Positions 6,354 to 17,432 of a stretch of DNA of 17,432 nucleotides are shown here, one piece after another. The stretch lies in assembly GCA_048941265.1 (NCBI GenBank), contig JBHLNT010000079.1:1-17432 (forward strand). The letters are read 5' to 3'. This DNA comes from Promethearchaeota archaeon (GTDB lineage Archaea > Asgardarchaeota > Lokiarchaeia > Sigyniarchaeales > SOKP01). The notes under the pieces were generated by a model. That model saw only the letters and a program-made list of their open reading frames with translations, was not told the origin of the DNA and made no database searches. A program made the position numbers and the translations under genes. Position 1 is the stretch's first letter; the number at the start of each line of letters is the position of its first letter.

Positions 6354-7829
6354 ATGAAAAAAAGATTAATATTAATAACAATAGACTGCTTGCGAAGAGA
6401 TCGCTTAAAAGTATATGGACATAGTAAAAATATTGCACCTCATCTCAATAAATTAAGTGAGGGTGCATTTATCTTTAAAAATGCAGTAACTAATGGCCCA
6501 AATACCCCCCCATCCTTTTATGCTATGTTTACTTCCGAATTTCCATTGTTATACAATAATTATGTTCCATTACCCCCTTACAAGAAAAAAATTAGTGAAA
6601 TTCTTCAAAAGAACGGTATCACTACATGTGGAATTCATTCTAATGCTCATTTAGGCAAAATCTTCAATTATCATTTAGGATTTGATGAATTTATTGATGT
6701 AGTTGCAGAACCTCAGTTTTCTTTAAGAAGAAAATTATCAAATTCATTCTATTCATTCTTAAACCTTTTTGGCATTAAAAAACGGGTAATAAATAAGATA
6801 AAAGCCAGTATAATTAAGATATTAAATTTCGAATATATGGTTAACACATCTTATAGAGCAAATAAAACAAATTCCCCATATTCTAATGCAAAAACAATCA
6901 TAACTCACGCAATCAATTGGTTAGAGAATAATTATGAATCTAATTTTTTTTTATGGATTCATATGATGGACGTCCATGGTCCATATTATCCTCCTAAAGA
7001 ATATATTCAAAAAATTTCTAATGAGAATACATTGAAATCTTATTACCAATACTTCGAGCGTATTAATAATTTCTATCGACCAGTACCAGAGAGTTATGAA
7101 AAAAAAGATGATATGCTATGTGATATAATAACCACATTGTATAATGCTGAAATATTATATTGTGATCATTATCTTGGAATTTTATTTCAATATTTAAAGA
7201 ATAGAGATATTTATGATGGCACAACTATAATAATCACATCTGATCATGGAGAGGAGTTATTTGAACGTAATTACTTAGGTCATTCTGCCTCGCTTTATGA
7301 TGAAATTTTAAGAATACCTTTTATTTTTAAACTAGATAATTCATTAAATGAACAAAAAATAATAAATGAACAAGTACAACTAATTGATCTAGCACCTACT
7401 ATTCTAGATCTTCTTAATCTACCAAAGGAACAAGATTTCATGGGTTTAAGCTTAATTCCCTTAATAAATGGGGAAATAAATTATAAGCATACTAAATATG
7501 CATTATCAGCTTCACTTCAAAATAATAAGAGGAACTATAATGGTCTTATAAAAAGAATTAACGATTTTTATCTTTTTATTTCAGTTAGAACCTTAAACTG
7601 GAAGCTAATTTATTCAGATCAAGAGAAAAAGGTTCAATTTTTCAATCTTAAGGAAGATCCGGATGAATTAGTAGATCTGAGTGAGTCTTCTAATGAAGTA
7701 GTCTTACAATCTAAAAAAAAGCTCTTTGAAAAAATAGAACCTTTTCTAAAAAGATACAATTCAGAAGATGAAAAAATTAAAAGAGCTATTGATAAGAATG
7801 CTCTAAAATACCTAATAAAGAAACAGTAA
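6354..7829 (+). CDS. Sulfatase-like hydrolase/transferase (alkaline phosphatase superfamily)
   Basis: LITIDCLRRD, NAVTNGPNTPPSF, WIHMMDVHGPY, YNAEILYCD, TSDHGE, GHSASLYDEILRIP, IDLAPTILD, FNLKEDPDE. Confidence 0.9.
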   Translation: MKKRLILITIDCLRRDRLKVYGHSKNIAPHLNKLSEGAFIFKNAVTNGPNTPPSFYAMFTSEFPLLYNNYVPLPPYKKKISEILQKNGITTCGIHSNAHLGKIFNYHLGFDEFIDVVAEPQFSLRRKLSNSFYSFLNLFGIKKRVINKIKASIIKILNFEYMVNTSYRANKTNSPYSNAKTIITHAINWLENNYESNFFLWIHMMDVHGPYYPPKEYIQKISNENTLKSYYQYFERINNFYRPVPESYEKKDDMLCDIITTLYNAEILYCDHYLGILFQYLKNRDIYDGTTIIITSDHGEELFERNYLGHSASLYDEILRIPFIFKLDNSLNEQKIINEQVQLIDLAPTILDLLNLPKEQDFMGLSLIPLINGEINYKHTKYALSASLQNNKRNYNGLIKRINDFYLFISVRTLNWKLIYSDQEKKVQFFNLKEDPDELVDLSESSNEVVLQSKKKLFEKIEPFLKRYNSEDEKIKRAIDKNALKYLIKKQ

Positions 7830-7876
7830 CAAAAGATTTTAAGATTTTTAAAAATTTTTAATATTAGCAATAAAAA

Positions 7877-9127
7877 ATGAAAAATAGAAATATAATTTTA
7901 GGAATCGATGGTGTACCTTTTGAACTAATGGATAATTTATCAACAAAAGGGATAATGCCTAATTTTAATCAATTGAAAAAGAATTTCAATTTTAGAAAAT
8001 TAAGATCATCAATTCCATGTGTATCATCAGTCTCTTGGAGCTCAATAATAACAGGTAAAAATCCTGGAGAACATGGTATATATGGATTTACTGAAATTAT
8101 TAAGAATACTTACTCTTTAAGTTTCCCAAATTTTAATGCTTTAAAGAGTAAGCCATTCTGGATTGAGAATCCAGAGAAAAAACATATTATAATTAATGTT
8201 CCTTCCACTTATCCTGCAAAAGAAATGAATGGAATTCATATCGCAGGGTTCATTGCATTAGACCTTGAAAATGCAGTTTACCCTAAAAAATACGTACAAA
8301 AATTACATGAATTAGGATATGAAATAGATGTCGATACAAAAATTGCTCATCAACAGTCACCTGACCTTTTCTTTGATGAATTATTTAGGATATTAAATCT
8401 TAGGAAAAATACTTTTAATTTTTTATGGGAAGAGATAAAATGGGATACTTTTATGCCTGTCATAACAGGTAGTGATAGAATTGGACATTTTTTATGGCAT
8501 GTGTACGAAGATGATAAAAATCCACTTCATCATAGATTTTTAGAATATTTTCACGAAATAGATCAAATTATTGGAGAAATATATAATAAATTAAATGACG
8601 ATGATACCTTCATAATTTTATCTGATCATGGAATGGAAAAAATAAATTATAATGTAAATTTAAATACCTACCTGGAAAATCAAGGATTTTTAGTGCTAAC
8701 TGACCAATTTAAAAAGTACAATCGTATTAAAAAGGGTTCAAAAGCGTTTGTATTAGATTCTGGAAGAATTTATTTAAACAAGAGAGGCTATTATCCAAAT
8801 GGAACTGTAAAAGAAGAAGATGCAAAATTTTTGATAGAAGAATTAAATTCTCTCTTTATTGACTTAAAACTCAATAATAAAAAGATTATTAAAAAAGTTT
8901 ATAAAAAAAATGAGATATATAATGGAAAAATGATTAGTAATGCTCCAGATTTAATATTAGTAGAAAATAAGGGTTTTAATTTAAAAGCCGGAATTGGAAA
9001 AAAAGACGTTTTTGAAAAAGAAAAAGATTTTTCAGGAAAACATAATGAAAATTCATTCATTTTAACAAATAAAGAGATTGACATAAAAAATCCAACTGTA
9101 GAGGATGTTATAAGCTTATTGGGATGA
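7877..9127 (+). CDS. Alkaline phosphatase superfamily protein, type I phosphodiesterase/nucleotide pyrophosphatase-like
   Basis: ILGIDG, SSIPCVSSVSWSSIITGKNPGEHGIYGF, NVPSTYP, DRIGH, LSDHG, APDL, SGKH. Confidence 0.9.
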   Translation: MKNRNIILGIDGVPFELMDNLSTKGIMPNFNQLKKNFNFRKLRSSIPCVSSVSWSSIITGKNPGEHGIYGFTEIIKNTYSLSFPNFNALKSKPFWIENPEKKHIIINVPSTYPAKEMNGIHIAGFIALDLENAVYPKKYVQKLHELGYEIDVDTKIAHQQSPDLFFDELFRILNLRKNTFNFLWEEIKWDTFMPVITGSDRIGHFLWHVYEDDKNPLHHRFLEYFHEIDQIIGEIYNKLNDDDTFIILSDHGMEKINYNVNLNTYLENQGFLVLTDQFKKYNRIKKGSKAFVLDSGRIYLNKRGYYPNGTVKEEDAKFLIEELNSLFIDLKLNNKKIIKKVYKKNEIYNGKMISNAPDLILVENKGFNLKAGIGKKDVFEKEKDFSGKHNENSFILTNKEIDIKNPTVEDVISLLG

Positions 9128-9134
9128 GATTTTA

Positions 9135-10652
9135 ATGGTAAAGTTGCATAATGCTAAAAAAACATGTTGGAATTGTCCAGCAGCAAAATTGAAAGGAAAT
9201 GTGGATTTTAGAGCCTGCGGTCAGGCCAGAGATAAGGGGTTAGATTTAACCGAAGGTGAAGAAATAGTAATTGAATGCAGAAGAAGAGCGGAATTAGGTT
9301 ATTTTGAGCCGAATATTACGTTTGAGCAATGTCCTGAATGGGTGCCTAGCGATTATGGTTATATATTGAGAAATATGAAGGTGATGATTCTAGGGATTGA
9401 TGGGTACTTAGGTTGGAGTTTAGCTTTGAAATTAGCAAAATTGGGCTTTCAAGTAAGTGGACTAGATAATTTCACACGTAGAGATTGTGTTATGGAAAAG
9501 GGTGCGCACACTATTGTACCAATAGAAAGAATGACAACGAGATTACAATTAGCAAGAGAAGTTCATGGGATAACAATTAATTTTAGAAACATAAATCTTA
9601 GTGAATCAGCAAAATTGAGGGAATTTTTAGAAGAAATAAAACCAGAGTCTATTGTACATTATGCTGAAATTCCGAGTGCACCCTATAGCATGGCTGATAT
9701 GGAGCATGCTGTCAAAGTTCAAGAAAATAATGTACTTGGTACATTAAAATTATTATGGTTAATGAAAGAGATAGTTCCGGAATCAAATTTAATTAAACTA
9801 GGCACAATGGGTGAATATGGAACCCCCTTAACAGGTAGACCTCTATTTGAGGGATTATTTCCAGCAGATGCAAGTATAGAGTGGGATAACAGAAAATGGA
9901 GTTTAGGTGGTGAAACAACCCCAAGAGACCCTGCCAGTTTCTATCATGTAAGTAAAGTTCAAGATACATTTAATATTTTAGAAGCGTGTAAATATTGGTG
10001 GCTTCGATCCTATGATGTCATGCAAGGAGTTATTTTTGGAGTATTCACAGAAGAATTGGCAGTTGATAAAAGATTAAGAACACGTTTTGATATCGATGAG
10101 TGGTTTGGAACTGTAATTAACAGATTTGTTGCCCAAGCAGTTGCGGGGATTCCTTTAACTATTTATGGAAAAGGAGAACAAATAAGAGGATTTATTGCTC
10201 TAAATGATGCTATGCAATGTATGATAAGATTAATTATAACACCACCAGAACCTGGACAGTATGACGTTGTTAATCAAGTGTCTGGGCTATACAAGTTAGT
10301 TGATTTAGCAGAAAAAGTTGCACATGTAGGAAAAGTAAAATTTGGCTTAGAAACTAAACTACAAAGAATAGAAAATCCACGAGTTGAGGCAGATACCCAT
10401 CCGTTTGAGGTAGTATCCAAAAAATTACCCAGAGTTTTTGGTTTTACCCCACAAATCAAGTTAGAAGAAGAAATAGAAAGAATGTTTAAAGTATTATTAG
10501 AAGATGACATAAAGAATAGAATTGAATTGAAGCGGCATACAATATTACCTGTAACTACATGGCAGGGAGATAAACGTAATATGAGATTGTTAGAAAAATA
10601 TGATCCCGGCACTAAAGATTATAAAGGATATAAACCTATATTTGACACGTAA
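9135..10652 (+). CDS. sqdB: UDP-sulfoquinovose synthase (SqdB/SQD1/Agl3 family) with an extra N-terminal Cys-rich domain
   Basis: From M81: ILGIDGYLGW, DNFTRR, SAPYSM, NNVLGT, KLGTMGEYGTP, SFYHVSKVQD (YxxxK), QGVIFG, RFDIDEWFGTVINRF, GIPLTIYGKGEQIRGF, ENPRVE. These match SQD1/Agl3 signature segments. Confidence 0.92.
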   Translation: MVKLHNAKKTCWNCPAAKLKGNVDFRACGQARDKGLDLTEGEEIVIECRRRAELGYFEPNITFEQCPEWVPSDYGYILRNMKVMILGIDGYLGWSLALKLAKLGFQVSGLDNFTRRDCVMEKGAHTIVPIERMTTRLQLAREVHGITINFRNINLSESAKLREFLEEIKPESIVHYAEIPSAPYSMADMEHAVKVQENNVLGTLKLLWLMKEIVPESNLIKLGTMGEYGTPLTGRPLFEGLFPADASIEWDNRKWSLGGETTPRDPASFYHVSKVQDTFNILEACKYWWLRSYDVMQGVIFGVFTEELAVDKRLRTRFDIDEWFGTVINRFVAQAVAGIPLTIYGKGEQIRGFIALNDAMQCMIRLIITPPEPGQYDVVNQVSGLYKLVDLAEKVAHVGKVKFGLETKLQRIENPRVEADTHPFEVVSKKLPRVFGFTPQIKLEEEIERMFKVLLEDDIKNRIELKRHTILPVTTWQGDKRNMRLLEKYDPGTKDYKGYKPIFDT

Positions 10653-10653
10653 A

Positions 10654-10968
10654 ATGGAAATCAACGATAAAAATTTTGAACAAGAAATAATAAATTCCAA
10701 AATTCCAGTATTAATCGAATTTTGGGCTTCTTGGTGTGTCCCTTGTAAGATGATGGATTATCTCCTTAAAGATTTGGAGGAAGAATATAACGGAAAAATT
10801 ATTATCGCAAAATTAAATATAGATAGAAATAAATTAATACCAACAAAATTCAATCTTACAGGAGTGCCAACATTTATTTCATTTAAGAAAGGAAAACTTA
10901 TAGAATCGAAAGTAGGTGCATTAACAAAAGAAGATTTGATTAAAATGATTGAAAATATATTGGAATGA
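10654..10968 (+). CDS. trxA: Thioredoxin (WCVPC active site)
   Basis: MEINDKNFEQEIINSKIPVLIEFWASWCVPCK...KLNID...GVPTF. ATG 10654, 1 nt after the sqdB stop, gives a typical 104-aa thioredoxin and is preferred over the ORF-track start at 10600. Confidence 0.92.
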   Translation: MEINDKNFEQEIINSKIPVLIEFWASWCVPCKMMDYLLKDLEEEYNGKIIIAKLNIDRNKLIPTKFNLTGVPTFISFKKGKLIESKVGALTKEDLIKMIENILE

Positions 10969-11022: not shown

Positions 11023-11937
11023 TTACAATTTCTTTTCATTTATTAAAGCTCTTATACTCTTTTTTATAGATTTAATTTCATTACTTTTTTCATCTTCCAA
11101 TTTTAAATGTTGGCCAGGAATAAATCGATGTTTATCATTTTTTAATATTAACCAAGGCACTTTAACTAAATGTTTTACCCGCAAATGTGGTATATGACTA
11201 AATTTAAAGTATTCTCCCATCAAATTACCATGATCTGAAGAGATCACGACTTTTCCATTTAATTGGTCAACAAGTTTATAGATTTCATTCATAACTAATC
11301 TAAGAGTCCTTATATATGCAATCCATACTCTTCTAAGCGGGATTTTATTTTTTTTAATTACTTTCCATAAATCTAATTCACCAAGCTCAGGATTAATATA
11401 TTTAGATTCATTTCGCAAGTTATCTAAAATCTCAATAAACTCAGCATCACCGATGTATGGTCGGTGAGGTTGATTATAGTGTATCAAAATTCTTTTATTA
11501 GGATATTCCTCTACCATATTTAAGGTTGCTCTCGTAACTTCTTTGGGAGGAACAGTTCTTAATTTATTATCCCATCCATAATCCCAAACATCAATAGTTT
11601 TAAAGAATGGATTAAAACCAAATGTTTTCGCTAAGTTTAGATTTGATAGGCGAGGATTACTACTTATGCAGATTACATCATTATAATTTCCGTTAAAATT
11701 CCATTTTAACCATTCTTGTGTAGTAGAACCACCTGAAATAACATAGGGTGCATTTCTTTTTACAAACCGAGAAAAAAGATCATACCTACAGGCATCAATG
11801 ATAATAAGATAGTCCCAGTCTTGATCCATGATCCTTATAGCATTTCTTTTTGAATATTTTCTACTGAACTTACCAAAGAAGTTCAATAATTTTCGACGTA
11901 AAATCCTTCTAAGCCCCATCAGCTGTGATCTCAACAC
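11023..11937 (-). CDS. Small alkaline-phosphatase-core (sulfatase/LTA-synthase-like) protein
   Basis: DWDYLIIIDACRYD, SGGSTTQEW, IHYNQPHRPY, SSDHGNLMGE, H...VKVPW. This type is common in archaeal glycosylation clusters. GTG start; the exact start is uncertain. Confidence 0.82.
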   Translation of the reverse strand: MLRSQLMGLRRILRRKLLNFFGKFSRKYSKRNAIRIMDQDWDYLIIIDACRYDLFSRFVKRNAPYVISGGSTTQEWLKWNFNGNYNDVICISSNPRLSNLNLAKTFGFNPFFKTIDVWDYGWDNKLRTVPPKEVTRATLNMVEEYPNKRILIHYNQPHRPYIGDAEFIEILDNLRNESKYINPELGELDLWKVIKKNKIPLRRVWIAYIRTLRLVMNEIYKLVDQLNGKVVISSDHGNLMGEYFKFSHIPHLRVKHLVKVPWLILKNDKHRFIPGQHLKLEDEKSNEIKSIKKSIRALINEKKL

Positions 11938-13327: not shown

Positions 13328-15352
13328 ATGAACCTAATAAAAATTTTCAGGTTTTTCAATTTATTCAATTTAGTAAATCATTATAAACCCTATCTTTTAA
13401 ACCGATTTTTATATAGATATGACTTAAAAAAGCGGATGATTTTACTTAATTCGATAAAATCAGAATTATTTTTCGAGAAATATTTTAAGGAATCATTAAA
13501 TTATGATAAATTGAGAGAAAAATTTTTTAGTAGAAACCTTTTTGCATATTCCAATGATATTGAATATGAAGATCTAATTGAAAATCTCAATACGTACTGT
13601 TCTGATTCAATTAAAGGTTTTTTAAAGTATGCTGATGATATTTTAAATCGAACATTCAATATATACGAAAAAGACTACACATTTGATAGAAAAATAAATT
13701 GGCATTATAGTTTTTTCAATAATTACATTTGGGAATTAAAAAGATCAGATAAAATCAATATCCATCCCCAAAACAAAAATATTGATGTAAAATATGTTTG
13801 GGAATTCAACCGCCATCAGTATTTGACTTATTTAGGTTTTGCTTTTTACTTTACAAAAGATGAAAAATTCGCAATTAAATTCAAGAATCTCATTCTAAAT
13901 TGGATAAAAGAGAATCCCCCTTTATATGGAATTAATTGGATTTCCGGTCTAGAAATTTCGATTAGATTAATTTCATGGATTTTTACACTATTTTTTTTTA
14001 AGAATTCAAAAGAAATTAATAATAATGTTTTTTTTAGGAAAATTTTCAATTCAATGTTTCAGCATGCTTATTATTTGAGATACTTCTACATGCGTAGGTC
14101 ATTTAACCATACAATTGGAGATTTAACTGGTTTATACTTATTTTCCAAAATTTTTATGGATATTCGCCCGATTAAAAAATGGGAGAGATTTTCATTCAAA
14201 AAATTAATAAAACAAATTCACCTACAAGTTAGGGACGATGGCACGAATATAGAACAGTCTGTAAATTATCATAAGTTTGTACTCGAATTTTTTACTATTT
14301 TTCTTATTCTTAATTTAAATCGCTTAAATAAAAATACAATCCTATTAATTGAAAAAATGGTGGAATATCTTGTATACATAATAAAACCTAATAATTCATT
14401 ACCATTAATCGGAGATATTGATAATGGAAAAGTACTTCTATTGACTTACTATAACAATAATTCTTATATAGATTTAATTAATTTGGGATCTATCTTATTC
14501 GAAAGACAAGATTTTAAGAGCGTTTCCAAAAGTATATCTCCGATTAGCTTATTATTTTTAGGTGATAAAGGTCTTAAAATCTTTAATGCTCTTAAATACA
14601 AAGAACCTAAGGAAAAAGTTAAATATTTTGATAAAGGTGGTTTTGTTGTAATAAGAGATAATTGGAATGAGTATGCAAGTTATTTGTTTATAGATATGGG
14701 GAGATTTGGTCCCCAAAATGCTGCTCATTCTCATAGTAGCATAACTAATTTTATTTATACTTCAAAAGGTAAAGATATCATTATAGACTCTGGAACATAC
14801 ACTTACAATAAATCTTGGAATGAAAGAAATATTTTTAGAGGTAGTAAAGCACATAATGTGGTGGAGATTGATCACCAAAACCAAGCTAAAATTAATGAAT
14901 GGTTTTCTTGGAAGAAAAAACCAAAAGTTAATAGAAGAATGGATTATAAAAACAATAAAATAAAAGCAAAATGCTCTCATGACGGATATGAAGGATTTAT
15001 TGTCAAAAGAATTATTGATACTAATGAGGATTTGAGAGAAATAACAATTAGAGATGTTATATTATTAGTCCAAGATTCCCTAATTAATCAAAAACACGAT
15101 ATTAAAATATATTTTCATTTTAATGAGGAAGTTATTATAAAACAAAAAAACAACAAAATAATGATCGATGAAGATATAATTTTTGAAGTAGATGCAAGCC
15201 ATAAATATAATATTTTTATCCAAAAATCAGAATACTCTCCAAGATACGGATTTATTTGTAATAATCATACTTTAATAATCCATTTAGAAAGTTTTTTTCT
15301 AGAAACTAATAAGATCGAGGTTGAAACCAAAATAAAACTCAAAAGTCAATAA
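13328..15352 (+). CDS. Heparinase II/III-family protein (alpha-toroid plus beta-sandwich, lyase-like)
   Basis: INWH, DVKYVWEFNRHQ, WIKENPPLYGINW, NH, DGTNIEQSVNYH, PLIGDIDNG, AHSH, DSGTYTYN, FRGSKAHN, HDGY. Confidence 0.9.
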   Translation: MNLIKIFRFFNLFNLVNHYKPYLLNRFLYRYDLKKRMILLNSIKSELFFEKYFKESLNYDKLREKFFSRNLFAYSNDIEYEDLIENLNTYCSDSIKGFLKYADDILNRTFNIYEKDYTFDRKINWHYSFFNNYIWELKRSDKINIHPQNKNIDVKYVWEFNRHQYLTYLGFAFYFTKDEKFAIKFKNLILNWIKENPPLYGINWISGLEISIRLISWIFTLFFFKNSKEINNNVFFRKIFNSMFQHAYYLRYFYMRRSFNHTIGDLTGLYLFSKIFMDIRPIKKWERFSFKKLIKQIHLQVRDDGTNIEQSVNYHKFVLEFFTIFLILNLNRLNKNTILLIEKMVEYLVYIIKPNNSLPLIGDIDNGKVLLLTYYNNNSYIDLINLGSILFERQDFKSVSKSISPISLLFLGDKGLKIFNALKYKEPKEKVKYFDKGGFVVIRDNWNEYASYLFIDMGRFGPQNAAHSHSSITNFIYTSKGKDIIIDSGTYTYNKSWNERNIFRGSKAHNVVEIDHQNQAKINEWFSWKKKPKVNRRMDYKNNKIKAKCSHDGYEGFIVKRIIDTNEDLREITIRDVILLVQDSLINQKHDIKIYFHFNEEVIIKQKNNKIMIDEDIIFEVDASHKYNIFIQKSEYSPRYGFICNNHTLIIHLESFFLETNKIEVETKIKLKSQ

Positions 15353-15370
15353 ATTATATTAATAATTATA

Positions 15371-15378
15371 TTTTATAA
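15371..15378 (+). promoter_or_regulatory. Candidate TATA box for the oxidoreductase gene
   Basis: TTTTATAA ends about 30 nt upstream of ATG 15408; no SD sequence. Confidence 0.25.
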
Positions 15379-15407
15379 TCTCAATTTGCTATAATATTTC
15401 GAATTCT

Positions 15408-17432
15408 ATGAGAAAATTATACATTAACCCTAAGGGACAAGTTATTTTAAAAGCGGTAAATAAACCAATTTTAAGTACGAAGGGATCATTGGTAAAAACC
15501 AGATATGCGTTAATTAGTTCGGGAACAGAATTATCAGCAATCAAATCAAAAAAGGTTGATAATTTGCCGTTAATCAAAAGGTTCATTAAATCAAAAAATT
15601 TTAGAAAAAGGGTATTGTCGATTTTTAAATCGAGTAATTTAAAAAGTGTCCTTAAAACATATAAATCCTATTCTAAGAGGGCTGAACAAAAAAATTTTGT
15701 GCCCCCTATTAAAAATTTAAGTCCGATAGGTTATAGTTGTTCTGGCATAATTCAAGATAGTAATATTGAAGAATTCCAAATAAACGATAGAGTAGCATGT
15801 GCAGGTATTAATCATGCAGAAGATGTATTTGTTCCTAAAAATTTATGTTGTAAGGTTCCTAATAATGTTAGTCTTGAAGAAGCTGCATTTGCAACTTTGG
15901 GGGCTATTGCATTACATGGCATCCATCGAGCTGAAATTAAACCCGGCGAGTATGTGGGCATAATTGGAACCGGATTAATTGGACTAATAACGATCCAATT
16001 AGCTAAAATCGCAGGAGCTATAGTTTTAGCTTCTGATTTGATTAAAAAACGTCTAGAGCTTGCGAAAACTTTTGGTGCTAATTTAGTAATTAATCCTGAA
16101 TATGGTGATTCTAAAATAGAAGTCAATAAATTTACTAAAGGGCATGGTTTAGATTCTATTATAATTTGCGCAACATCCAAATCTTCAAAACCATTAGAAC
16201 AGGCGGTAGATTTGATCCGAGATAAAGGGAAAATTATTTTGCTAGGATTGTTTCCTATTAATATTGACCGCAGCCAACTCTACTATAAAGAAGCAGATTT
16301 ACTCATATCACGTTCTTATGGTCCCGGACGTTATGATCCGTATTATGAATTTGATGGGTATGATTATCCTAAAGATTATGTTCCATGGACAATAAAGAGG
16401 AATATGGAATACTTTCTTAAATTAATTTCAGAAAATCGAATAAATGTCAAACCCTTAATTACAGATATTATTCCAGTTAATCAAGCAAATAGAGCATATG
16501 AACGATTATTATTAGATCCCATAAATAATATTACTTTTCTTTTAGATTTCAAAAAAGATTGGGAAAAACCAGAAATAATCCAAGAGAAGCATGATCTTAG
16601 AGATAAATCTGAAAAATTAATTATAGGTTTAATTGGATGCGGTTCATTTGCTCAATCTTTTCATTTGCCTTATCTTATACAAAACCCAAATTGTAAGATA
16701 AAAGCTATTGCTACAAATCATAAGCAAACAGCACAAATTTGTAAAGAAAAATATCATCCTGATTATATCACAACAAATTATAAAGATATACTAAAAGATC
16801 TTGATATAAATACAGTATTTATTTACACTCGACATGACACACATGCCAAATTTTCTATTGAAGCTCTTAATAGTGGAAAGAATGTATATGTTGAAAAGCC
16901 AATGGCATTAACTATGAATGATTGTATAAAAATACATGATATTGTAAAAAATACAAAATTGAAGTATTCAATCGGTTTTAATCGAAGATACAGTCCTTTT
17001 ATTCTCAAAGCAAAAGAATTATTAGAAAAACGAGATAATCCGATTATTTTAAATTATAGAATAGCAAATCCTTATATCGCAACAGACCATTGGATCTATG
17101 ATCCCAATATTGGCGGTGGACCTCTAATTGGTGAATTATGCCATTTTACTGATTTAATTTTATATCTTATAAATTCTAAACCTAAAGAATTAATAGCTAA
17201 TGGAGGTTCAATTAGTCACAAAAATATTGAAGTATATGATAGTTGCATAGCCTTAATTGAATTTGAGAATAGGTCTATTGCAAACTTGATCTATACGGAT
17301 TTAAATGGACCGAATATGCCAAAAGAGAGAATAGAAATTTACTCCGGGGATTCTGCTATCATAATTGATGATTTTTTAATCATGAATACTTCAGGTTATG
17401 AATTTGGAAATTGGAGGTTGGACCAACAGGAT
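15408..17432 (+). CDS. Bi-domain oxidoreductase (MDR/alcohol-dehydrogenase-like domain fused to Gfo/Idh/MocA domain), 3'-truncated
   Basis: Absent from the ORF track because there is no stop in the window. ATG 15408 gives MRKLYINPKG...LISSGTE...PIGYSCSG...DRVACAG..HAE...GIIGTGLIG...SRSYGPGRYDPYYE, then IGLIGCGSFA, TRHDTH, VYVEKPMA, GFNRRYSP, GGGPLIGELCHFTD. The frame spans 675 codons to the window end. Confidence 0.93.
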   Translation, partial: MRKLYINPKGQVILKAVNKPILSTKGSLVKTRYALISSGTELSAIKSKKVDNLPLIKRFIKSKNFRKRVLSIFKSSNLKSVLKTYKSYSKRAEQKNFVPPIKNLSPIGYSCSGIIQDSNIEEFQINDRVACAGINHAEDVFVPKNLCCKVPNNVSLEEAAFATLGAIALHGIHRAEIKPGEYVGIIGTGLIGLITIQLAKIAGAIVLASDLIKKRLELAKTFGANLVINPEYGDSKIEVNKFTKGHGLDSIIICATSKSSKPLEQAVDLIRDKGKIILLGLFPINIDRSQLYYKEADLLISRSYGPGRYDPYYEFDGYDYPKDYVPWTIKRNMEYFLKLISENRINVKPLITDIIPVNQANRAYERLLLDPINNITFLLDFKKDWEKPEIIQEKHDLRDKSEKLIIGLIGCGSFAQSFHLPYLIQNPNCKIKAIATNHKQTAQICKEKYHPDYITTNYKDILKDLDINTVFIYTRHDTHAKFSIEALNSGKNVYVEKPMALTMNDCIKIHDIVKNTKLKYSIGFNRRYSPFILKAKELLEKRDNPIILNYRIANPYIATDHWIYDPNIGGGPLIGELCHFTDLILYLINSKPKELIANGGSISHKNIEVYDSCIALIEFENRSIANLIYTDLNGPNMPKERIEIYSGDSAIIIDDFLIMNTSGYEFGNWRLDQQD

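Follow-up and report, generated by a model that had tools for sequence, protein, structure and literature searches.

What is a thioredoxin doing in a glycan locus, one base behind the gene for a sulfosugar synthase? The question is raised by 17,432 nucleotides of DNA from a Promethearchaeota archaeon (contig JBHLNT010000079.1 of assembly GCA_048941265.1), hereafter the window. Note that the window is an entire contig (C3) of a 5.0-Mb assembly in 361 contigs, with a GC content of 30.5%, a completeness of 91% and a contamination of 4.8%. Within it, four co-oriented open reading frames (ORFs), on the forward strand, are separated by successive gaps of 47, 7 and 1 nucleotides (Table 1). In order, they encode a sulfatase-fold protein, an NPP-type phosphodiesterase-like metalloenzyme (NPP), a 505-residue synthase related to SQD1 and Agl3 (SqdB, ORF 9135-10652), and a thioredoxin (Trx). 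SqdB begins with an added domain containing five cysteines, and we refer to such proteins as long forms. The ATG of the Trx gene, at position 10654, lies one base past the SqdB stop codon (TAA, 10650-10652). A first-pass annotation, made from the sequence alone, had described this spacing, a position inside a glycosyltransferase cluster, and the lack of a reductase gene for adenosine 5'-phosphosulfate (APS) or 3'-phosphoadenosine 5'-phosphosulfate (PAPS) in the window. All three descriptions hold: the ORF coordinates give the same gaps, the flanking genes are of the GT4, GT2 and FkbM types, and 0 of the 13 window ORFs, cassette proteins included, match PF01507 (PAPS_reduct). Our answer to the opening question is that NPP, long SqdB and Trx form a conserved, horizontally spread, mobile three-gene cassette that may provide its synthase with sulfite.

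The first-pass annotation had proposed that a dedicated Trx partners the cysteine domain. We compared the neighbourhoods of long SqdB forms with those of plain forms, which have no such domain. A scan with one genome per species returned 25 long-form loci, two of which are the same contig. A further 11 long-form loci, together with 38 loci of the plain type, came from searching 400 Asgard and 401 Thermoplasmatota genomes. Together, the window, 24 loci from the scan and these 11 make 36 distinct long-form genome loci. From the cassette genes we built hidden Markov models (HMMs), with which every ORF at both types of locus was searched. For the plain loci, flanks extended up to 6 kb, and 37 of these 38 loci had a confirmed SqdB ORF. 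Trx was found at 35 of 36 long-form loci, directly downstream of SqdB in 34 and upstream of NPP in one; the remaining locus is cut inside SqdB. Similarly, NPP was found at 33 of 36, directly upstream in 32 and two kb downstream in one, while two loci are cut and one has no NPP. In contrast, neither gene occurs within ~6 kb of SqdB at any of the 38 plain loci. As a control for sensitivity, the same models recovered the housekeeping WCGPC Trx (90 bits) and the NPP paralogues of the source genome. Metagenome loci were taken from an independent scan, queried with a 5-row alignment, and were counted only where there was enough flank. Among 41 fused long-form loci of this kind, Trx is directly downstream in every case and NPP directly upstream in 39. 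We conclude that the adjacency of Trx and long SqdB is far beyond chance. Since it is kept across phyla, and strictly tracks the cysteine domain, the proposed partnership was borne out.

The three genes also share a history. Distance matrices for 24 loci correlate with r = 0.80 between NPP and SqdB, 0.59 between Trx and SqdB, and 0.77 between NPP and Trx. In 2000 permutations, no value was as high (0/2000). These correlations fit inheritance of the three genes as a unit. Archaeal hosts of the cassette are found in Asgard, Altiarchaeales, Theionarchaea, Thermococci, Woesearchaeota, Thermoplasmatota and Hydrothermarchaeales; bacterial hosts belong to Armatimonadota, Saccharibacteria and Planctomycetota. 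In a quick maximum-likelihood tree of 69 synthase cores, a single branch splits 32 long forms from 37 plain forms (Shimodaira-Hasegawa-like approximate likelihood ratio support 99, stem 0.93). Internal branches of this tree are very short, bacteria are nested among archaea, and Asgard sequences occupy at least three places. The simplest reading would be a single fusion event, then wide horizontal spread.

Table 1. Features of the locus, and related operons elsewhere in the source genome (G000).
Feature	Position	Strand	Detail
Sulfatase-fold (alkaline-phosphatase superfamily) gene, 491 aa	6354..7829	+	PF00884 Sulfatase, 145.5 bits
NPP-type phosphodiesterase-like metalloenzyme, 416 aa, first cassette gene	7877..9127	+	PF01663 Phosphodiest, 145.8 bits (cut-off 23)
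Five-cysteine N-terminal domain of SqdB, residues 1-80	9135..9374	+	C-x2-C-x13-C-x19-C-x17-C
SQD1/Agl3-type UDP-sulfoquinovose synthase core (SDR fold) with short conserved C-terminal tail	9375..10652	+	NF041015
Dedicated thioredoxin, 104 aa	10654..10968	+	Active site WCVPC; TIGR01068, 100.4 bits (cut-off 96.8)
Sat-NPP paralogue-CysC operons	G000:C223:28549-31747 and G000:C333:1601-4773		Source genome, outside window

The core of the synthase is intact. Residues 80-477 align with Arabidopsis SQD1 (1i24) with an E value of 1e-77. The catalytic Thr (in KLGTMGEYG) and the YHxSK triad (SFYHVSK; Y270, H271 and K274) are kept, and these residues are invariant in 84 aligned homologues, whose identity to the protein of the window is 66-86%. 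In its core, of the short-chain dehydrogenase/reductase (SDR) fold, and in its catalytic residues, the protein is therefore like SQD1 (1i24/1qrr), cyanobacterial SqdB and Agl3 of Sulfolobus acidocaldarius. Moreover, the window gene, like that of Agl3, lies in a glycan locus. It differs from the plain enzymes in adding the invariant five-cysteine domain and the C-terminal tail, in belonging to the long-stemmed group of the tree, and in having NPP and Trx as neighbours, which plain forms never do. The NF041015 model for UDP-sulfoquinovose synthase scores 406.3 bits over residues 81-477, under its 575-bit cut-off. All long forms score between 397 and 428 bits, compared with 568-655 bits for plain Thermoplasmatota forms. 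Hence, the long forms are a distinct subfamily and not the equivalog. The predicted product of the enzyme is probably UDP-sulfoquinovose, or a sulfosugar closely similar to it, and would serve the glycan locus around the gene. Separately, two long-form synthases, in loci L028 (6312-8849) and L126 (5968-8484), are ~840 residues long. Each has an insert of ~330 residues close to the catalytic Thr; this insert matches LAGLIDADG and Hint models and is probably an intein.

The five cysteines of the N-terminal domain, at SqdB residues 11, 14, 28, 48 and 66, are likewise invariant in the 84 homologues. No Pfam family matches the domain at E values up to 10, and all matches in the ESM Atlas fall under 0.9. 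When an 81-residue query was compared with 1.84 billion cluster representatives, 42 matches were obtained. These are long-form synthases, fragments and free-standing proteins, the last being 67-108 residues long with all five cysteines kept (67-124 residues for all free-standing proteins found). In an AlphaFold2 (AF2) model of the full 505-residue protein, made with the 84 close homologues, the predicted local distance difference test (pLDDT) score is below 50 at residues 18-56, in the domain, and at 226-286, so that domain packing is not readable. A model of the domain alone, from a more diverse alignment, reaches a pLDDT of 78.6. Foldseek found nothing in the PDB at E <= 0.001 for this model. 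An exhaustive structural search of 48,161 chains gave three with Z >= 2 (Z 2.3-2.8, over ~41 residues), all of them small [4Fe-4S] proteins: the small subunit of hydroxyphenylacetate decarboxylase (2y8n_B), a high-potential iron-sulfur protein (HiPIP; 1isu) and the small subunit of alkylsuccinate synthase (9o8u_F). Hence, among the chains searched, the model resembles at this level only HiPIP and the small subunits of glycyl-radical enzymes, which are HiPIP-like. The C-x2-C with which the cysteine pattern starts also resembles HiPIP. Differences are the fifth cysteine, Z scores of just 2.3-2.8 and the lack of a Foldseek match. The domain is probably metal- or Fe-S-binding, with the modelled fold matches a lead only.

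Free-standing versions of the domain are informative about its partner. Among 80 metagenome loci with the domain, it is fused to the synthase in 56 and free-standing in 14; a further 9 loci are truncated past the domain, and 1 is split. In 7 of the 14 free-standing cases, a strong NPP orthologue is directly upstream, and 2 more have NPP fragments. The seven NPPs score ~450 bits with the cassette HMM, are confirmed by PF01663, and end 4 nucleotides inside the start of the cysteine ORF. Trx is downstream in 0 of the 11 free-standing loci with enough flank, and no SqdB core was seen. Because the free form is coupled to NPP, with no SqdB or Trx nearby, the domain is tied to NPP rather than to regulation of SqdB. 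We conclude that it is an autonomous module tied to NPP. One other free-standing protein is followed, 12 nucleotides downstream, by the alpha subunit of sulfopyruvate decarboxylase (TIGR03845, 148.3 bits against a cut-off of 147.95), which is part of another sulfonate pathway. In six of the metagenome loci L161-L169, which carry a free cysteine protein with NPP, a CapA/PGA_cap-family gene is divergently upstream. This gene scores 282 bits with the MslH epimerase model, below the cut-off of that model.

In the NPP itself, D11, S50, D200, H204, D250, H251 and H389 are invariant in 24 orthologues. By comparison with known motifs, the Asp and His residues are putative ligands of a two-metal site, and S50 is the putative nucleophile. 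The protein resembles NPP/ENPP enzymes (PF01663) in its family match, in this invariant Asp/His set and in its putative hydroxyl nucleophile. Unlike known NPP/ENPP enzymes, it is the obligate neighbour of a cysteine-rich partner. A phmmer search of the PDB gave no match, so no solved relative was found by sequence. For the Trx, S26, W27, C28, C31 and P72 are invariant among 25 aligned cassette members, which thus keep both CxxC cysteines and the cis-proline. Three of the 25 read WCPVC or WCTAC and none reads WCGPC; in one 23-member set, all are WC[V/P/L/I]PC. The other thioredoxin of the source genome (contig C308) has the WCGPC site of a housekeeping protein.

Relatives of the NPP are also linked to sulfate activation. 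On two contigs of the source genome, a 461-residue NPP paralogue (PF01663, 150.7 bits) lies between ATP sulfurylase (Sat) and APS kinase (CysC) (Table 1). Its putative nucleophile is Thr, compared with Ser in the cassette enzyme. The Sat-NPP-CysC order was present at 15 of 20 sampled Asgard Sat loci: in 9 of the 10 cassette genomes sampled, and in 6 of 10 genomes that lack the cassette. The paralogue could be a sulfonucleotide enzyme. The first-pass annotation had assigned to its alkaline-phosphatase-fold enzymes a role on nucleotide-sulfate intermediates; this is plausible for NPP, given the paralogue in Sat-CysC operons, while the sulfatase-like gene is no conserved member of the unit. Sulfate-activation genes also occur within the retrieved flanks, at 5 of the 24 loci from genomes and at 3 of the 80 from metagenomes. 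Those at the genome loci are Sat with CysC (L016), CysD with CysN (L020, L024 and L027) and an ambiguous CysD/H-like gene (L029). Across whole genomes, Sat is present in 15 of 24 with the cassette, and most others have CysD-type matches. Among Asgard archaea, 12 of 13 long-form genomes have Sat, compared with 179 of 400 genomes overall.

How might these parts work together? We infer, for substrate, chemistry and all physical contacts alike, that NPP, the cysteine domain and Trx draw on activated sulfate to provide the synthase with sulfite, and give this a probability of roughly 0.5. Briefly, the three extra parts would form a built-in sulfur supply. Sat and CysC of the genome would produce APS or PAPS, and NPP, as a putative bimetal phosphodiesterase-like enzyme with a Ser nucleophile, would bind this sulfonucleotide. 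The sulfo group would be transferred to, or reduced at, the cysteine domain. Trx would then donate two electrons, and sulfite would be freed beside the synthase active site. Similar chemistry is known for CysH with thioredoxin, where a sulfonucleotide reacts with an enzyme cysteine to give S-sulfocysteine, from which Trx frees sulfite. Fe-S-type CysH proteins have five key cysteines too, as does the copy in the source genome (CC...CxxC and ECGLH). However, CysH has no sequence relation to the cassette proteins. In the cassette, an alkaline-phosphatase-fold enzyme would bind the nucleotide, and an 80-residue module would contribute the cysteines. A more tentative extension is that NPP and the five-cysteine module make up a new, CysH-independent, Trx-driven sulfonucleotide reductase, a portable sulfite generator. 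Such an enzyme would combine the alkaline-phosphatase fold with a small, possibly Fe-S, cysteine module. When fused to SqdB, it would channel sulfite into sulfoquinovose synthesis; the free pair would support different sulfonate pathways, in anaerobic archaea and bacteria that are uncultured.

Several observations weigh against a sulfite supply of this kind. NPP orthologues have no invariant cysteine. Enzymes with the alkaline-phosphatase fold usually hydrolyse their substrates, and no NPP is known to hand a sulfo group to a thiol. The Sat-linked paralogue could also be a pyrophosphatase, or a phosphatase for 3'-phosphoadenosine 5'-phosphate (PAP). Pairs of free cysteine protein and NPP show no nearby sulfite consumer, and the fold of the cysteine domain is weakly assigned, with Z below 3. 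In one Thermoplasmatota genome (G817), long SqdB and Trx occur with no cassette-type NPP anywhere at E <= 1e-20. Note that this genome is near-complete, since the contig with the cassette accounts for 1.92 Mb of 1.9 Mb. The counts above span related genomes, hence they are not independent samples, and loci L020, L021 and L024 are from unpublished genomes.

Alternatively, the extra parts might only control a conventional enzyme. The synthase would be an ordinary one that uses sulfite, the cysteine domain would act on it as a regulatory switch, based on a disulfide or a metal, and Trx would reset that switch; NPP would be an accessory nucleotide hydrolase that removes, for example, UDP, UMP, pyrophosphate or PAP. 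Five invariant cysteines and a dedicated Trx agree with such redox gating, as does G817, which retains long SqdB and Trx in the absence of NPP. Furthermore, the core has every catalytic residue of SQD1, so nothing new is needed for catalysis. Even so, we consider this unlikely. Free-standing cysteine proteins, whose genes are translationally coupled to NPP, have neither SqdB nor Trx near them, and gating leaves unexplained both the retention of NPP at 33 of 36 genome loci and the NPP clade in Sat-CysC operons. Less probable again is that Cys domain and Trx draw sulfite from a different donor, thiosulfate or a persulfide, in the style of a rhodanese, or that the product is a thio- or other 6-substituted sugar. 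Thiol-based release of sulfite from thiosulfate, as in GlpE-type rhodaneses, would also need Trx. Most hosts belong to uncultured lineages, known through metagenome sequencing, and the long form is under the NCBIfam cut-off (406 against 575 bits), on a long stem apart from plain forms. However, this proposal has no role for NPP. It is also at odds with the retention of all SQD1 active-site residues, with Sat in 12 of 13 Asgard long-form genomes, and with sulfate-activation genes beside several cassettes.

Sulfite could instead arrive by the canonical route, from a CysH-type APS or PAPS reductase elsewhere in the genome, with the cassette Trx as its electron donor. For the source genome, some findings agree with this. 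A search for sat, cysC and cysH returned two Sat copies, two CysC copies and a Trx-dependent APS reductase (contig C313, 901-1614; TIGR02055, 272.5 bits against a cut-off of 235.3), which is the sole PF01507 copy. Therefore, the ordinary sulfite route is open here, and this counts against the built-in supply proposed above. At 91% completeness, the genome gave no match for a NIR_SIR sulfite reductase. With an APS reductase present, sulfite is therefore apparently made for something other than sulfide. In addition, at locus L093, a CysH-like gene (938-1573; PF01507, 135.9 bits; CC...CxxC and ECGIH) takes the usual place of NPP, 370 nucleotides upstream of long SqdB, although this is a single case on a short contig, and it counts in favour of the built-in supply as well. 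The wider survey argues the other way, and we regard the canonical route as improbable. PF01507 matches in 0 of 8 Asgard cassette genomes. CysH is above the cut-off in only 3 of 35 long-form genomes, compared with 13 of 35 plain-form genomes, yet Trx is kept in all of the long-form genomes, including the 32 with no CysH above the cut-off. Similarly, plain SqdB is never beside Trx, even in the 13 genomes that have CysH. We had also considered loss of CysH as a property specific to the cassette. That idea is weakened, as is the support it would lend to a CysH-independent supply, since 22 of 35 plain-form genomes likewise have no CysH above the cut-off.

The setting of the source-genome APS reductase merits a separate remark. 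Its gene is divergent to an adjoining, unclassified gene of the pyridoxal phosphate (PLP) fold, which is PALP-like (both within C313, 3-1614). The PLP-fold protein is 54% identical to the product of the gene that follows a free-standing five-cysteine protein at locus L159. Genes of this type occur in 5 of 301 Asgard genomes and, elsewhere, are preceded by a different small cysteine-rich ORF. A PALP-like link to both the cysteine protein and CysH is suggestive, with one locus of each kind.

The fourth gene of the operon is a different matter. The first-pass annotation had described a four-gene module. For NPP, SqdB and Trx, which are conserved together, this stands; for the sulfatase-fold gene, it does not. 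That protein scores 136.7 bits with the arylsulfatase model NF010322, below the cut-off of 481. In alignments to solved sulfatases, it has TPPSF where C/SxPxR is expected, with Thr at the formylglycine position and Phe in place of the motif Arg. Therefore, it is not a formylglycine sulfatase but, judging by these residues, a Thr-type enzyme of the alkaline-phosphatase fold. A homologue is found at only 1 of 25 related loci (L008, the nearest relative), 6 kb away on the opposite strand. Given this distribution, and the missing motif, we rejected the gene as a module member; it is a lineage-specific passenger of the operon.

Other features of the window are as follows. Convergent with Trx is a 304-residue ORF (11023-11937, reverse strand) that has faint Sulfatase and PglZ matches (E 0.02-0.05) and carries DACRYD and SDHGN motifs. 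Possibly, it is a highly divergent gene of the alkaline-phosphatase fold, the third here; the 25 related loci searched gave no homologue. Further along, on the forward strand (13328-17432), come a heparinase II/III-like gene and then a gene fusion, clipped by the contig end, in which a zinc-type alcohol dehydrogenase domain is joined to a GFO/IDH/MocA oxidoreductase. Between 8501 and 10500, the GC fraction is 0.29-0.35 over the synthase gene, compared with ~0.23-0.27 in the flanks, and there is strong positive GC skew. The raised GC fraction is compatible with very high protein conservation or with foreign origin. An Rfam scan of the window gave no match.

We found no description of the long form, or of the cassette, in the literature searched, supplements aside. 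In the portion of PMC11284389 consulted, sulfoquinovose is mentioned for Sulfolobus controls only. Hence, the three-gene unit is widely shared and apparently undescribed.

Sulfoquinovose is among the major organosulfur compounds. Its synthase is considered to require free sulfite, a reactive and toxic species. The cassette suggests that this sulfite is made or delivered in a manner so far undescribed, in Asgard archaea, DPANN and other archaea, and several bacterial phyla, where most such genomes have no CysH. If true, this would be a new enzyme solution for reducing sulfate to sulfite. Asgard archaea and tiny-genome symbionts would then also be predicted to carry sulfonated glycans on their surfaces.

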